DNA of 64,000 nt, from the sequence record NC_028925.1; one strand, written 5' to 3'. Each line of letters starts with the position of its first letter. The stretch's first letter is position 1. Made by a program: the position numbers and the translations under genes. This document shows, piece by piece, positions 6,479-22,062 of this stretch. Source of the DNA: Escherichia phage vB_EcoM_VR25. A model generated the notes under the pieces. It saw nothing but the letters and a program-made list of their open reading frames with translations. It made no database searches and had not been told where the DNA came from.

Positions 6479-6555
6479 AATTTTCTCTCTTGGTTAATAA
6501 GTTTATTCTCCAGTGGGACCATTATACTCTGGCCCCAAGAGTTTGTACACTAAAC

Positions 6556-17141: not shown

Positions 17142-17333
17142 TTATACAACGAAGATGGCTTTATCACCATTTGCATCAGTCACTTCATAAGTGTCTTCAT
17201 GATACAACGGAATAATCCAGGTAACACCATCATCAGCAATAACATGGATTGCTTCTTGGTCTTGCGACACGATTTCATATTCTTCAAAAATCTCGAATAC
17301 GGAAATCTTAGAGCCCGTACACATTGCACTCAT
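17142..17333 (-). CDS. hypothetical acidic protein, 63 aa
   Basis: ORF in the array. Confidence 0.4.
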   Translation of the reverse strand: MSAMCTGSKISVFEIFEEYEIVSQDQEAIHVIADDGVTWIIPLYHEDTYEVTDANGDKAIFVV

Positions 17334-17529
17334 ATTGTTCCCTTCTTTTAATCAGTTGGCGATGTGCCTTTTTAAGCTTACGAATCTGACGTTTGGTTGG
17401 TCGTGCAACGTAAGCTTGTGTAGTTACTCGTCCGAAAACTCCATACTTGGGAGACGGAGTATCAATGAAGACTTCCCATTGGCAAGAGTAGCTATATGTT
17501 GCTTTAGAAAATTGAGTTAAAACAAACAT
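17308..17529 (-). CDS. small basic protein with RPTKRQIRKLKKAHR motif, 73 aa
   Basis: Motif shared with 18685-18981 and 41096-41272. Confidence 0.5.
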   Translation of the reverse strand: MFVLTQFSKATYSYSCQWEVFIDTPSPKYGVFGRVTTQAYVARPTKRQIRKLKKAHRQLIKRREQYECNVYGL

Positions 17530-17530
17530 A

Positions 17531-17890
17531 TTAACCTCGTTTCATGAAGGCATTAAAAATCTGGTCGTCAATAGCAATAGACGATTCTTGAGCTTTGGCC
17601 CAAACCCCTTCCAGAATGTCATTCGCTTCAGTAGATATCATGACCCCAATTTCAGGATTTCCAGTTATCCAGATTGCGCAATCGCGCACATTCTTTTTAT
17701 CAAATGGATATCCACGAGTATCTTCATAAGGTCCATCCATTACCATAAATGAACGAGCCTTTATGATAAAATCATCTTTAACGATAATATAACCAATCGC
17801 CTGATTAAACCGAGGCTCACGAAATTCATAACGAGCATTACCATCATTATTGCTGACCAGTTCAAAATCCAGAAAATTATAATAACTCAT
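17531..17890 (-). CDS. hypothetical protein, 119 aa, C-terminal DDQIFNAFMKRG
   Basis: C-terminus and its 3' nucleotide sequence repeated in the next gene. Confidence 0.5.
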   Translation of the reverse strand: MSYYNFLDFELVSNNDGNARYEFREPRFNQAIGYIIVKDDFIIKARSFMVMDGPYEDTRGYPFDKKNVRDCAIWITGNPEIGVMISTEANDILEGVWAKAQESSIAIDDQIFNAFMKRG

Positions 17891-17891
17891 A

Positions 17892-18329
17892 TTAATCTCG
17901 CTTCATAAAGGCATTAAAAATTTGGTCGTCAACTGAATAAACAGGATTTTCCAGAATTTTCAAAAGACTGTTTTTGATGTACTTGCTAGGGATACTTGCA
18001 TTAATAACATCATCAACTAATTCGCTGTTGTGATTAATATTGTTGAATTCAAACCCTTCAAATGTTACTTTATGAGGAACACCCCCAGAAAACAGATGTG
18101 TCAATTCAATCATTGTATTACGCGTAAGCGGTTTGGTTACCATTTTAGGGAAATCTTTCCACTGATTTAATTCTTTGTTAAGAAGTTTATGAGCAAATAC
18201 AATTCTATCATCACTATCAACAAGAAAATAACCCAGATATTGAATCTCGTCGCTCCAAAACACCCTGTAGGCCTGTGCATTTGGATTTTTACAACGAAGT
18301 TTTTTGATAACCAAATTTCTGTTAATCAT
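17892..18329 (-). CDS. hypothetical protein, about 145 aa, C-terminal DDQIFNAFMKRD
   Basis: Start set at an internal ATG just after the sp stop; the longer track ORF overlaps sp. Confidence 0.5.
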   Translation of the reverse strand: MINRNLVIKKLRCKNPNAQAYRVFWSDEIQYLGYFLVDSDDRIVFAHKLLNKELNQWKDFPKMVTKPLTRNTMIELTHLFSGGVPHKVTFEGFEFNNINHNSELVDDVINASIPSKYIKNSLLKILENPVYSVDDQIFNAFMKRD

Positions 18330-18330
18330 T

Positions 18331-18624
18331 TTATTCACCTGTAACTTCTTTGACGATGTTTTCATTTTCAAAGTTAGGGTCACAATACAACACGTAATTA
18401 TACTGCATAACCCCACCAGATGCCAACTGGTCAGATACTTCTTTGACCTTGTTTGGTTGGTCACGTTTAGTGATGTTCATGATGTCCGCATAAATCTGGT
18501 GCTCAACTGCTTCCTGGTCAGCGGTCATTGACCACTCGCATAAGTCTTTATCATAACCAGCGGTAACTGGAGCTGCATGACATGAAGCGAGGACTAAGAT
18601 TGCTGCGATAGATAACTTTTTCAT
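18331..18624 (-). CDS. sp: Spackle periplasmic protein (Sp), 97 aa
   Basis: Signal peptide plus GYDKDLCEWSMTADQ ... GGVMQYNYVLYCD, matching T4 Sp by recall. Confidence 0.9.
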   Translation of the reverse strand: MKKLSIAAILVLASCHAAPVTAGYDKDLCEWSMTADQEAVEHQIYADIMNITKRDQPNKVKEVSDQLASGGVMQYNYVLYCDPNFENENIVKEVTGE

Positions 18625-18645
18625 TTGAATCTCCTTAGTAGTTGA

Positions 18646-18682
18646 TGGGATAATATTAAATCATTATTATCCCGTTGTACAC
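18646..18682 (-). promoter_or_regulatory. early-type promoter (-35 GTGTACA) with ATCCCATCAACTACT leader upstream of sp
   Basis: Read from the minus strand; conserved leader and AGGAG before the ATG. Confidence 0.45.
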
Positions 18683-18684
18683 AC

Positions 18685-18981
18685 TTATTTTACTTTAGCG
18701 TAATCTAAAGTCACTAACTGCGGTTCCATTGCCAATTGACGTTGACGACGGAGGACTGATGCACGGACATACACGCGAAATGCCTTTTTGCATTGGCGAA
18801 TCTGACGCTTAGTTGGGCGAACATCAAATTCATAGAATTCCACAAAGTCCATTTGTCCCTTGGTTTGTTGAGAAATAATAAGTTCCCAACGACTATTTAC
18901 GCGGTCTGCATAAAACTTGTGCTTACCAAAAGACTTGTCCCAAAAACCACTTTTTACGGGTTTCATAATTTGAATAATCAT
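18685..18981 (-). CDS. small basic protein with RPTKRQIRQCKKAFR motif, 98 aa
   Basis: Paralog of 17308-17529. Confidence 0.5.
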   Translation of the reverse strand: MIIQIMKPVKSGFWDKSFGKHKFYADRVNSRWELIISQQTKGQMDFVEFYEFDVRPTKRQIRQCKKAFRVYVRASVLRRQRQLAMEPQLVTLDYAKVK

Positions 18982-19310
18982 TTTTCACCTTCCACAGATT
19001 GACCAGTCATTTTGTAATATTCTTCGCGAGCATTATATAACGCAAATTCAATATCGCTGATGCAAATTTCTTCATTTTCCAGTTGAGATTCAACTGCCAG
19101 GATTAAACTACGTAGGGCTGCACCTTTACGTAAATCAATTTTATGATGACATTTTCCATTAACAAATGCTTCTACCTTGGCGTTGTGTGTATCCGCAGTT
19201 TTGTGTGCATACCAATGAATCCCAGCAGGATGTAATGACACTACACGATTATAAGCTGGAAAACCCAACGGGGTGATAACCAGAGTCACTTCAACTTTAT
19301 CAGTAATCAT
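18978..19310 (-). CDS. hypothetical protein, 110 aa
   Basis: ATGA-coupled ORF. Confidence 0.5.
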   Translation of the reverse strand: MITDKVEVTLVITPLGFPAYNRVVSLHPAGIHWYAHKTADTHNAKVEAFVNGKCHHKIDLRKGAALRSLILAVESQLENEEICISDIEFALYNAREEYYKMTGQSVEGEK

Positions 19311-19513
19311 TTTGTTTCCTCACTACGCCAATCTGATTCAAAAACTAGATTATCACCAACAAATGCTTTAACTAACGCATTATTAACTTCAGCAAATTGT
19401 GAAGTGACCCACTGGATTTGGTCTTTATCGGATACGTCCAGAGTCACTTCTTTAGTAAACATATTACCATTTTCAAACCAACCAATAAACATAACTTTGG
19501 CTAAATTTCCCAT
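19307..19513 (-). CDS. dmd: Dmd, discriminator of mRNA degradation (antitoxin against RnlA/LsoA), 68 aa
   Basis: KVMFIGWFENGNMFTKEVT ... EVNNALVKAF matches T4 Dmd by recall. Confidence 0.85.
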   Translation of the reverse strand: MGNLAKVMFIGWFENGNMFTKEVTLDVSDKDQIQWVTSQFAEVNNALVKAFVGDNLVFESDWRSEETK

Positions 19514-19804
19514 TTAGATTTCCTCACAAAAGGCCCATTCAGCGTGATAAACTGTTGCGCCAGGGGTTGCATTCATTTGAACCAAGTCTACAGGTGAAAT
19601 CACACGATATAGCTTAGGTTCTCCTCCAATTGAACGTGCTGCACGTCCAGCATAAATCTTCGCCAAACCAATGTCTTCAGTAAAGAAAACACGATTTAGA
19701 TTTTTCTTACGACCAGTTTCTGACAGGACTCCAGTTTCTTCTGGAGGACAAAGCATGTTATTGATATTTGCCAGACTGCATGACCCATGATAGAAAGTTT
19801 TCAT
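19514..19804 (-). CDS. hypothetical protein, 96 aa, N-terminal FYHGS motif
   Basis: Not present between dmd and 41 in T4 as recalled; own promoter and leader cassette upstream. Confidence 0.5.
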   Translation of the reverse strand: MKTFYHGSCSLANINNMLCPPEETGVLSETGRKKNLNRVFFTEDIGLAKIYAGRAARSIGGEPKLYRVISPVDLVQMNATPGATVYHAEWAFCEEI

Positions 19805-19828
19805 TTTATTCTCCAGTAGTTGATAGGG

Positions 19829-19860
19829 TCATTATACTATAAAGAAAAAGGGGTGTACAC
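19829..19860 (-). promoter_or_regulatory. early-type promoter whose -35 GTGTACA sits in the loop of hairpin ggggtgtacacccc (PeSL-like)
   Basis: -10 TATAAT and -35 read on the minus strand; palindrome 19850-19864 overlaps the -35. Confidence 0.5.
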
Positions 19861-19872
19861 CCCTTTTATCAC

Positions 19873-20175
19873 TTATGCCAACTCATAATTGTGCATTGTC
19901 AGACAACGAATTTTTCCAGTAGTTGGGTGCATAACAGTCACACTAATTGTGTAATCATCACACACGTTAACAAAAGGTTCCGCGATAACAAATACTTCAC
20001 CGCCTGCCAACAGATACTCACGAAGGCTTGAGCGAACCGCTGAAGGGTGAACATCGCTTTTGAGCTTTATTAATTTACCGGTTTGAATGCCAGATGCGAT
20101 AAGAGCAGCACAGGTTTCATCACGGCGAGCGAATTGTCCAAAGTAGTAACGATTCATGTCGGTTTGATTAAACAT
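19873..20175 (-). CDS. hypothetical protein, 100 aa
   Basis: ORF bounded by a promoter/terminator cassette upstream and a hairpin downstream. Confidence 0.5.
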   Translation of the reverse strand: MFNQTDMNRYYFGQFARRDETCAALIASGIQTGKLIKLKSDVHPSAVRSSLREYLLAGGEVFVIAEPFVNVCDDYTISVTVMHPTTGKIRCLTMHNYELA

Positions 20176-20225: not shown

Positions 20226-20257
20226 CATTATGCCCTAGTAGAATTCAGTTGTACACC
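20226..20257 (-). promoter_or_regulatory. early-type promoter (-35 GTGTACA, -10 CATAAT) with CCATACTGAGTTA leader
   Basis: Read from sequence; same cassette as at about 10964, 47122 and 47720. Confidence 0.5.
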
Positions 20258-20276
20258 CTTTTTAAAATAAAAAAAA

Positions 20277-20290
20277 GGACCCGAAGGTCC
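20277..20290 (-). terminator. stem-loop ggacc-cgaa-ggtcc followed by T8 on the minus strand
   Basis: Perfect inverted repeat with UUCG loop and an 8-nt T-run; downstream of gene 41. Confidence 0.65.
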
Positions 20291-20293
20291 TTG

Positions 20294-21733
20294 TTAGAAT
20301 TTCATCTGCGCCGCAAGGTCGTCCAGGTCGCTCCTGTTGACCCTGGTTTGTCTATTCATTTCAGCCTGACGATTCATCTCACCAGTGGCTTCTTTCACCG
20401 TAGGGCCTTGTTTAGGAGTTGAATCATCATCAACCTCATACCAGCGCTGATTACCTTTCTTAACACCCATTTTGAATTTATTATAGTAGTTCTTATCACC
20501 ATAACGAGACTTAAGCTGTTTGATTAACTGCAGTCCCATTTGAGCGAATTCTTCGGTCTCAACAACACCCAACATAAAGTCGGCCGTGTGAGCAATACCA
20601 AAGGATTCTGCGATGTCAGCCATGTCAATCTCGGCTGCAACGTTCGCGCCCCTTGTTGTCTGTGCTGCAGTCCACAGGACCACATTTTTCTCGACCGCCA
20701 GACCACGAAGTTCTTCTGCAACCATCTTAATCAGACCGTAACTATTCTCGGTAAACGTTTTCAGTCTTGAGCTTGCACAAATTGCCAGGTAGTCAACAAT
20801 AATCACATCCGGCACAAATCCTTGCTTCAGTTTGTACTCGTTCAGTAATGCACGGAAGGTATCCGCATGCGCGCCCCCAGTTGGATATTGTTTTATCTTC
20901 AGAGTCCCGAGAGTCCCGGAAGCACGCCATTTTTCCATCTTACTTTTGTATTCTGCCCATGATATATGTCCTTCATCAATATCATCCAGAGATACATCAA
21001 GCAAGTTGGCATCAATACGTTTGGCACATACTTCTTCAGCCATTTCCATGCTTATATAAAGAACATTATGACCAGTCTGAAGATAGTCAGCGGCTAACGA
21101 ACAAAGTCCCAGAGATTTGCCGACGTTTGTTCCGGCCAGTAAAACGTTCTCTGTACCATACTCAACTCCACCCTTCGTGATTTTATTCAGGATGTTAATA
21201 CGGAACGGAACTTTCTTCGATTTGTTTAGATAAGTCTGGAATCGAGCTTCGTAATCGTTTAACCAGTCATGACCCAGAGCAGAGTCAAAACAGATAGACA
21301 ATGCATCGCGCATGATGTCAGGGATAGCACCAATATCCGGGATTCGTTTATCACGTTTATCTTTCGGAAGTTCGGCATTACTCTGAATTTCGATAATCCT
21401 GGATGTTGCATTGAACATCGCAGACTTCTGTACATACTTCTCGGTTTCTTTAACCAGCCATTCCTGGTCTTCTGGGGTATCAGCCAGGACTCCTAAGAGT
21501 TTCTTTGTGCCTTCATATTCAACTTCAGAAAGGTCAGAACCGTCGAGCGCGATATCAAGTGCAGTCTTAGTTGGAACTGCTTGATATTCTTTTACATGTT
21601 CGTTAATCGTATTGAAAAGGGTCTTCGCAGGACCCTTTTCAAAATATGTATTATTCAGATATGGCCAGACTTTAACAAAATATTCCTTGTTAAAGAGTAG
21701 CTGGGATAAAATAGTTTCTACCACTTCCACCAC
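20294..21733 (-). CDS. 41: replicative DNA helicase gp41 (DnaB family), 479 aa
   Basis: Walker A GTNVGKS and DnaB-like motifs; position between dmd side and gene 40. Confidence 0.9.
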   Translation of the reverse strand: MVEVVETILSQLLFNKEYFVKVWPYLNNTYFEKGPAKTLFNTINEHVKEYQAVPTKTALDIALDGSDLSEVEYEGTKKLLGVLADTPEDQEWLVKETEKYVQKSAMFNATSRIIEIQSNAELPKDKRDKRIPDIGAIPDIMRDALSICFDSALGHDWLNDYEARFQTYLNKSKKVPFRINILNKITKGGVEYGTENVLLAGTNVGKSLGLCSLAADYLQTGHNVLYISMEMAEEVCAKRIDANLLDVSLDDIDEGHISWAEYKSKMEKWRASGTLGTLKIKQYPTGGAHADTFRALLNEYKLKQGFVPDVIIVDYLAICASSRLKTFTENSYGLIKMVAEELRGLAVEKNVVLWTAAQTTRGANVAAEIDMADIAESFGIAHTADFMLGVVETEEFAQMGLQLIKQLKSRYGDKNYYNKFKMGVKKGNQRWYEVDDDSTPKQGPTVKEATGEMNRQAEMNRQTRVNRSDLDDLAAQMKF

Positions 21734-22062
21734 CTCTTTTTCATTTTAATCTTATCAATTTCATCTTGTATTTGCATTGTAACACACTTTTCTACATGCA
21801 CTGCAAGCTCCGCTTTGCGGTCTTCAGAAGGGGTGCCGAAATCAACTGAAACTTTTCCAGATGGTTCAATTTTAATTCCGGTTACGTACACAATGTGACT
21901 GGACCCATCGGGAAGTGATAACAGAATTTCCTGTCGTACAGTTCCCATGGATTGCCGGATAATCTCCAAACTTTTTTCGTAGTAAGGTACAGAAGGAGCC
22001 TTAGCTCCCTCCGCATCTTTCTCGAAATTATCTAAATCAGATAAATCGATATCATTCATCAA
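21718..22062 (-). CDS. 40: gp40 head vertex assembly protein, 114 aa
   Basis: Size and position between 41 and uvsX as in T4. Confidence 0.6.
   Translation of the reverse strand: MMNDIDLSDLDNFEKDAEGAKAPSVPYYEKSLEIIRQSMGTVRQEILLSLPDGSSHIVYVTGIKIEPSGKVSVDFGTPSEDRKAELAVHVEKCVTMQIQDEIDKIKMKKRWWKW

Follow-up and report, generated by a model that had tools for sequence, protein, structure and literature searches.

Two independent early-gene cassettes between dmd and gene 41 of Escherichia phage vB_EcoM_VR25, one of them encoding a predicted minimal ADP-ribosyltransferase

Bacteriophage T4 uses three ADP-ribosyltransferases (ARTs): Alt, ModA, and ModB. Beside these enzymes, three described ARTs invite comparison with the gene considered here. 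Arr (Pfam PF12120, Arr-ms; PDB 2hw2 and 9iaf) is a small, single-domain enzyme of about 140 residues, in which a (Y/L)HGT motif carries the histidine that binds nicotinamide adenine dinucleotide (NAD). Tpt1/KptA (PDB 9ld3 and 7kw9) is an RNA 2'-phosphotransferase with an NAD-binding lobe and a second, RNA-binding lobe, and AcrF11 (PDB 6kyf) is a small ART of phages and prophages that serves as an anti-CRISPR. As for the genomic setting, the hyperplastic regions of T4-type genomes contain promoter-early stem-loop (PeSL) cassettes (Arbiol 2010, PMC2839356; Comeau 2014, PMC4122927), and the published early-promoter consensus for the T4/PST pair is TTTACW-N17-TAYWAT (PMC4122927). Here, we analyzed a stretch of 64,000 nucleotides from Escherichia phage vB_EcoM_VR25 (NC_028925.1; hereafter called the “window”), in which two minus-strand open reading frames (ORFs) of 96 and 100 amino acids (aa), ORF A and ORF B, lie between dmd and the helicase gene 41. 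In T4 (NC_000866), as a preliminary description of the window had stated, gene 41 (20612..22039) is followed by dmd (20371..20553) after a gap of only 58 nt. The same description regarded the two ORFs as a two-gene insertion, and the ORF listing reproduced its coordinates exactly.

The locus consists of two independent early-gene cassettes, and not of a single insertion. In the account that best explains the data as a whole, to which we assign a probability of about 0.6, a defence-related hyperplastic stretch of a T4-like genome houses both of them. ORF A would then be an early NAD+-using effector, namely a minimal, stand-alone ART of the Arr/Tpt1-like H-Y-[EDQ] clade that is in effect the NAD-binding core, while ORF B would be a recent orphan gene (ORFan) on a PeSL-type cassette.

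How is ORF A related to the known ARTs? Direct sequence searches of Pfam (E ≤ 1), NCBIfam, PADLOC, and the PDB with ORF A returned nothing significant. The AlphaFold2 (AF2) model, calculated from an alignment of 39 T4-like sequences, has a predicted local distance difference test (pLDDT) score of 88.9 and a predicted template modeling (pTM) score of 0.81, and adopts the split beta-sheet NAD-binding fold that defines the ART superfamily. When this predicted model was compared with the PDB by Foldseek, Arr ranked first, with a probability of 0.99 and a template modeling (TM) score of 0.62 (0.45 when normalized to the target). In the BFVD, the model also matched a phage protein of 94 aa that is annotated as 'Rifampin ADP-ribosyl transferase' (9e-8). 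A profile search with the ORF A family among 1.84 billion cluster representatives retrieved 216 relatives, and the 45 most diverse of them were aligned into a broad-family profile. This profile matches the Arr chains 2hw2 and 9iaf (E 9.2e-4), and Arr is the only PDB match obtained by sequence. In the profile alignment, the YHGT motif of the family lies over LHGT of Arr, with H6 of ORF A corresponding to His19, and VFFT lies over the IYIT strand. The preliminary description had considered an H-G-S/T motif typical of NAD-using enzymes, and this suggestion is borne out by the alignment of YHGS with the Arr motif and by the fold of the model. Many relatives are classed as Arr-ms by Pfam (16 of the 45 at E ≤ 0.01), and several long ones score above the Arr-ms gathering score. 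The link between ORF A and Arr is therefore transitive, because the relatives and the family profile match Arr and ORF A itself does not. The ART identity of this family is not new, since one comparative paper and a few GenBank annotations already give it, and cassettes of this type have likewise been described before.

In the broad family, H6, G7, T42, A48, Y51, and A52 are invariant among the 45 relatives, and P20, P21, E29, R32, V39, F40, G60, and G61 are nearly so. Among the NAD-contacting positions, H6-G7 is invariant, and F40/F41 and Y51 are conserved. ORF A shares with Arr the small single-domain architecture, the motif with the NAD-binding histidine, and the VFFT/IYIT strand. In contrast to Arr, however, it has only 96 residues; the alignment spans residues 14-82 of the 143 in Arr, nothing in ORF A matches Arr from about residue 83 to 143, and about 40 C-terminal residues are lacking. 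In addition, ORF A stays below the Pfam threshold, has Phe where Arr has Tyr49, and is encoded in an early operon of a lytic phage, not in an antibiotic-resistance setting. The likeness to Tpt1/KptA is structural, as the predicted model of ORF A corresponds to the NAD-binding lobe, but the second, RNA-binding lobe is entirely absent. ORF A is therefore neither Arr proper, given the sub-threshold score and the missing C-terminal part, nor Tpt1, given the missing lobe. It also differs from AcrF11, to which it has no detectable sequence relationship, in being conserved among phages whose hosts vary widely in their defence systems.

ORF A is widely distributed. Its homologues were found in 608 phage records, with Escherichia, Klebsiella, Acinetobacter, Aeromonas, Enterobacter, Vibrio, and others as hosts, mostly at 60-90% identity. 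Among 48 IMG/VR loci, those of Mosigvirus-, Dhakavirus-, and Gaprivervirus-type phages and of several other lineages have ORF A as the next gene downstream of gene 41. The preliminary description had named the conservation of both ORFs in place, with housekeeping roles, as the finding that would speak against it; for ORF A, half of this is seen, as the gene keeps its position among these lineages but has no assigned function, and for ORF B it is not seen. In distant phages, the identity of ORF A exceeds that of gp41 (90% vs 67%, 75% vs 59%, and 72% vs 49%), and the ratio of nonsynonymous to synonymous differences (pN/pS) between genera is 0.12-0.24, so that ORF A behaves as a real gene. Because of this conservation and the low pN/pS, the target of ORF A is more likely to be a conserved host component than a strain-specific immunity protein. 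T4 has no homologue of ORF A in the 10 kb around the locus. Judging from the distribution, the T4 arrangement more probably reflects the loss of ORF A in the T4 lineage than a gain in the lineage of VR25.

The comparison with close relatives adds to this picture. Relative to VR20, which belongs to the same genus, the nucleotide identity is 96-100% in gene 41 and ~90% in ORF B, falls to 69-77% in ORF A (~77%), dmd, and the following 110-aa ORF, and is 90-96% below position ~17800. The ORF A allele of VR7 and VR26 is 90% identical at the amino acid level to the Mosigvirus alleles, versus 78% to those of VR20 and CJ20 of its own genus. These affinities suggest that the cassette has been exchanged between genera. 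Viewed in 200-nt bins, the divergence from VR20 takes the form of an island at 17800..19800, with 64-90% identity per bin (mostly 69-78%, lowest at 18001-18200) between flanks of 90-100%. The N-terminus also varies: most homologues are 105 aa long (e.g. MKTIDCKAEFKIFYHGS...), and at this end of the gene (19780..19804, minus strand) the VR7/VR26 allele, with its MKTFYHGS start, looks like the result of an in-frame deletion of the nine codons that follow MKT.

Outside the phage records, a profile scan of genome contigs with ORF A found five loci, one of them in a bacterium of the candidate phyla radiation (CPR) beside a transposase, and no partner gene is conserved across these five loci. Homologues with 65-71% identity are located on contigs of 167-178 kb in bacterial or metagenome-assembled genome (MAG) assemblies, including that of Flagellimonas marina (178 kb). 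Three of the five loci probably belong to such T4-like phage genomes that were co-assembled or mis-binned.

The anatomy of the cassettes is given in Table 1. An early-type promoter precedes each ORF, in agreement with the promoter cassettes of the preliminary description. The window contains 15 matches to the motif GGTGTACA-N18-ATAAT, versus 2.15 expected, and most of them are on the minus strand. This excess and strand bias indicate that the motif is the early promoter type of VR25, and it could be used for mapping the early transcription units of this phage. Minus-strand matches to this early-promoter-like motif, (A/G/T)GTGTACA-N18-(T/C)ATAAT, lie for example at 6521, 7600, 37346, 47133, and 47721. 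The earlier statement that both ORFs are bounded by hairpins holds for ORF B, which has one on either side, but not for the 3' end of ORF A, where the TAA stop abuts the ATG of dmd and no hairpin is formed. As no promoter-like site was seen in the 3' half of ORF A either, ORF A and dmd constitute one transcription unit.

The spacers follow a common design. The 9-bp stem-loop after ORF B overlaps the -35 element of the ORF A promoter, generating a PeSL-like composite, and alignments revealed a hairpin like that of the gene 41 terminator 3' of gene 41 in the relatives. The same order of stem-loop, GT(G/T)TACA, ~17 nt, TAYNAT, and Shine-Dalgarno sequence is found in the spacers of VR25, CJ20, the JS98-like and Mosigvirus-type phages, and others, and the 41-dmd spacer of T4 obeys the same stem-loop/early-promoter design. 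Moreover, the 5' leader CCTATCAACTACTGGAGAA-AAAATG is common to the ORF A genes of the window and of the JS98-like and Mosigvirus-type phages. As in the published PeSL cassettes, the composite of a stem-loop and an early promoter (GT[G/T]TACA-N17-TAYNAT) flanks variable ORFs, and cassettes have been gained or lost at the same site among relatives. The difference is that the stem-loop sequence after ORF B is single-copy in the window, although the promoter motif is repeated 15 times. No Rfam family reached its threshold in the region. A match of the Salmonella small RNA STnc50 at 19837..19911 (minus strand), over the terminator hairpin of ORF B, scored 27.7 bits (E 0.042), below the gathering score of 55, and is most likely due to chance.

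ORF B has a very different history. Its homologues, found by tblastn, are confined to 20 phage records, all of the VR7/SP18 type and 95-99% identical, and a search of 5.8 billion proteins recovered just one cluster. The pN/pS of 0.19-0.20 relative to VR20 and CJ20 indicates purifying selection, and hence that ORF B is a genuine gene. For ORF B, nothing significant was found in Pfam, NCBIfam, PADLOC, or the PDB sequences; the weak matches to DUF7307 (E 0.18) and phrog_27384 (E 0.006) were treated as noise, and the single-sequence AF2 model (pLDDT 47.7) is unusable. The ORF B slot is empty in the JS98-like phages and is occupied by an unrelated 124-aa ORF in a Mosigvirus-type phage, while CJ20 has an extra 82-aa cassette besides ORF B at the same site. 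On this comparative evidence, ORF B alone is classed as a recent, lineage-specific insertion, an ORFan restricted to Gaprivervirus-type phages. It would have entered the genome on a PeSL-type cassette, with the terminator of gene 41 on one side and the promoter of ORF A on the other. From its position, ORF B is taken as an accessory early protein, possibly with an anti-defence function. It represents a further case of orphan genes moving on promoter/stem-loop cassettes and is of modest interest on the present evidence.

The relatives of ORF A provide hints about its role. Many of them are embedded as domains in very large proteins (the longest has 3924 aa), where their neighbors include ART-PolyVal, NUDIX, GNAT, CHAP, ddrB-ParB, LPD23, and DUF7178. 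In two proteins, NUDIX lies directly C-terminal to the ORF A-like domain. One polyvalent relative contains a lambda-type portal and is fused to a 2H/Acb1-like phosphoesterase, which is a further likeness to Tpt1/KptA, since the 2H phosphoesterase class processes the Tpt1 product in the tRNA-splicing pathway. ORF A itself is a stand-alone protein, unlike these polyvalent relatives, in which the domain is embedded. Polyvalent proteins are thought to enter the cell together with the DNA of phages and conjugative elements (PMC5512222).

We propose the following course of events. ORF A would have an early promoter of its own and would lead an operon continuing with dmd, the Dmd-like ORF, and the TifA-like ORF. 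Soon after infection, the protein would bind NAD+ and transfer ADP-ribose to a target conserved across the Gammaproteobacteria. This target is less likely to be a strain-specific immunity protein than a core component of the host, a small molecule, or a nucleic-acid or phosphate end. The modification would aid the takeover of the host or counter its defence. In this manner, the early transcript of ORF A would accomplish what the homologous domains of injected polyvalent proteins do, and ORF A would not be a dedicated toxin neutralized by Dmd.

A more specific version of this mechanism is that ORF A is among the smallest active ARTs and disarms a widespread defence by modifying something other than a protein, for instance a phosphate end of RNA or DNA or an immune signal derived from a nucleotide. 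We offer this version tentatively, as a possibility with the odds against it. If true, it would explain how an accessory early gene can equal or surpass the replicative helicase in conservation among T4-like phages that infect Escherichia, Klebsiella, Acinetobacter, Aeromonas, and Vibrio, and also why polyvalent proteins carry the same domain into the cell.

ORF A would not be the only ART of its phage. VR26 encodes ModA, ModB, and Alt besides ORF A (L057 11713..12932; L059 1..1288), and VR25 probably carries them as well, which would give these phages four ARTs from two unrelated clades. As a very widespread and strongly conserved gene that is followed in its operon by proven anti-toxin genes, ORF A makes the locus a reasonable experimental lead. 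Its target, once found, would be a new ADP-ribosylation event in phage-host conflict, and the protein would provide a measure of the minimal size of such an enzyme.

Several observations weigh against this account of ORF A as an active early effector. E94 in strand 5, the last strand, is invariant in all 39 T4-like sequences and yet is not conserved in the broad family of 45, and F40 takes the place of the strand-2 Tyr49 of Arr in the profile alignment; for these two reasons, catalytic competence is not assured. The loop around residues 29-32, with the conserved E29/R32 motif, was modeled at low confidence, and ORF A lacks a match to Pfam Arr-ms even at E ≤ 1. The class of target is deduced solely from the conservation and the identity of the structural neighbors, and a literature search found no experimental study of an ORF A-type ART. 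Membership in the operon says little about function, because tight packing is normal in T4-like early regions. Two of these points, the variability of E94 in the wider family and the Phe at the strand-2 Tyr position, together with a length of 96 aa without a substrate-recognition domain, would also fit a catalytically dead ART fold, acting as a sponge or decoy for NAD+, for ADP-ribose-derived immune signals, or for an ART-binding host protein. Phage sponge proteins against signaling nucleotides are indeed an established strategy. However, both Arr and Tpt1 are active without the canonical strand-5 Glu, the NAD-contacting H6 as well as G7, T42, and Y51 are invariant in the diverse relatives, and E94 is fixed in the T4-like set. 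The relatives located beside NUDIX in polyvalent proteins further suggest that an ADP-ribose product is made, and we consider a dead fold unlikely. Still further from the evidence is the idea that ORF A is a true Arr orthologue, which would inactivate rifamycin-type RNA polymerase inhibitors and thereby shield the host polymerase on which the phage relies. Some GenBank homologues are named 'rifampin ADP-ribosyl transferase', and Arr is both the best Foldseek match and the only PDB match by sequence. Nevertheless, the identity to Arr is 17%, the alignment is limited to residues 14-82 of Arr, Pfam Arr-ms is not reached by ORF A, and the deep conservation in lytic phages of many hosts would be hard to square with niche antibiotic exposure. 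An Arr orthologue is thus highly improbable.

Two other explanations concern the partners of ORF A. ORF A and ORF B are adjacent on the same strand and are present together in the 20 Gaprivervirus-type records, as would be expected if they formed a functional two-gene module that was inserted as a unit. The claim of a two-gene insertion stands to the extent that the window has two extra genes relative to T4. In contrast, each ORF has a separate promoter with a hairpin between them, 608 records contain ORF A and 20 contain ORF B, the divergence from VR20 is unequal (~77% vs ~90% nucleotide identity), and in other phages the place of ORF B is empty or taken by another ORF, so that a joint module is scarcely credible and only ORF B qualifies as a recent arrival. 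The partner suggested by the literature is Dmd. Iyer, Burroughs, Anantharaman, and Aravind (2022) predicted that a 'p0068-family' ART and Dmd make up a toxin-antitoxin system in phages of Escherichia, Shigella, and Salmonella (PMC9503650). Accordingly, ORF A could be the ART toxin and Dmd the antitoxin of a phage type II pair. The published description fits the gene pair and the hosts, and ORF A may be a member of the 'p0068' family; the abutting stop and start codons imply translational coupling; and the two genes are neighbors in 10 loci of the Mosigvirus, Dhakavirus, and Gaprivervirus types. However, with a Dmd hidden Markov model (HMM) that detects T4 Dmd at 1.6e-28, dmd was found within 3 kb in 10 of the 49 ORF A loci, while 39 are without it. 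The next gene elsewhere encodes the periplasmic spackle protein or a hydrophobic protein of 55-60 aa, both of which are unfit as a cytoplasmic antitoxin. A third kind of downstream gene is a small, acidic, zinc-ribbon-like ORF with CxxC pairs, and the downstream gene often overlaps the ORF A stop. The phrog_7619 ORF that follows ORF A in Klebsiella/Enterobacter-type phages was considered as a hidden Dmd and rejected (hhalign probability 0.1%, hydrophobic protein).

The VR26 genome (NC_028957) separates the two genes most clearly. As far as the end of ORF A, ORF B included, it shares 100% identity with the window, and the similarity breaks exactly at the ORF A stop, from which a 188-aa ORF (19225..19791, equivalent to L002 3292..3858) replaces dmd and the next two genes. 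This ORF has no Pfam or PHROG match, and the HMM finds no Dmd in the whole VR26 genome, although its ORF A is identical. The recombination breakpoint between VR7 and VR26 is therefore located precisely between ORF A and dmd. Likewise, CJ20 has no dmd at the locus, and T4 has dmd without ORF A at this site. Unlike the members of a co-evolving pair, ORF A is far more conserved than Dmd (52-74% among coliphages), and Dmd already has a demonstrated target, RnlA/LsoA, in the cited literature. Because the ART and Dmd assort independently across loci, an obligate ORF A-Dmd pair is unlikely, and we regard the toxin-antitoxin explanation as quite improbable overall. This redirects the experiments that are worth doing.

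Table 1. Features of the dmd-gene 41 region, with positions in the window
Feature	Position	Strand	Details
uvsX, 40	upstream of gene 41	-	
gene 41	20294..21733	-	helicase
terminator hairpin	20275..20292	-	after gene 41; 7-bp stem, UUCG loop, then U8
early-type promoter	20227..20255	-	TGTACA-17-CATAAT; upstream of ORF B
ORF B	19873..20175	-	100 aa; VR7ORF045c; phrog_17014; annotated hypothetical in VR7
stem-loop	19846..19867	-	9 bp, AAAAGGGGU-GUAC-ACCCCUUUU; after ORF B
early-type promoter	19831..19859	-	TGTACA-17-TATAAT; upstream of ORF A (and dmd, genes downstream)
ORF A	19514..19804	-	96 aa; VR7ORF044c; phrog_2110; annotated hypothetical in VR7; starts MKTFYHGS
dmd	19307..19513	-	68 aa; Pfam Dmd E 2.8e-22; 58% identity to T4 Dmd
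VR7ORF042c	18978..19310	-	110 aa; weakly Dmd-like
VR7ORF041c	18685..18981	-	98 aa; T4 gp61.4/TifA homologue (42% identity, E 5e-14)
sp	18331..18624	-	

The window is ~99% identical to Escherichia phage vB_EcoM_VR7 (Gaprivervirus, Straboviridae), and the genes are arranged on the minus strand in the order uvsX, 40, 41, ORF B, ORF A, dmd, the 110-aa ORF, the 98-aa ORF, and sp. TifA is an inhibitor of ToxN (PMC9391042), and a second gp61.4/TifA homologue lies at 17308..17529 (minus strand; 41% identity to T4 gp61.4, E 5e-12). With dmd and two TifA homologues, the 41-61 interval looks like an island of anti-toxin genes. The 110-aa VR7ORF042c is related to Dmd by PHROG cross-hits, by the HMM (E 0.018; 3e-5 for the VR20 homologue), and by BLASTP (35% identity over 31 aa), and may be a diverged, extended Dmd paralogue.

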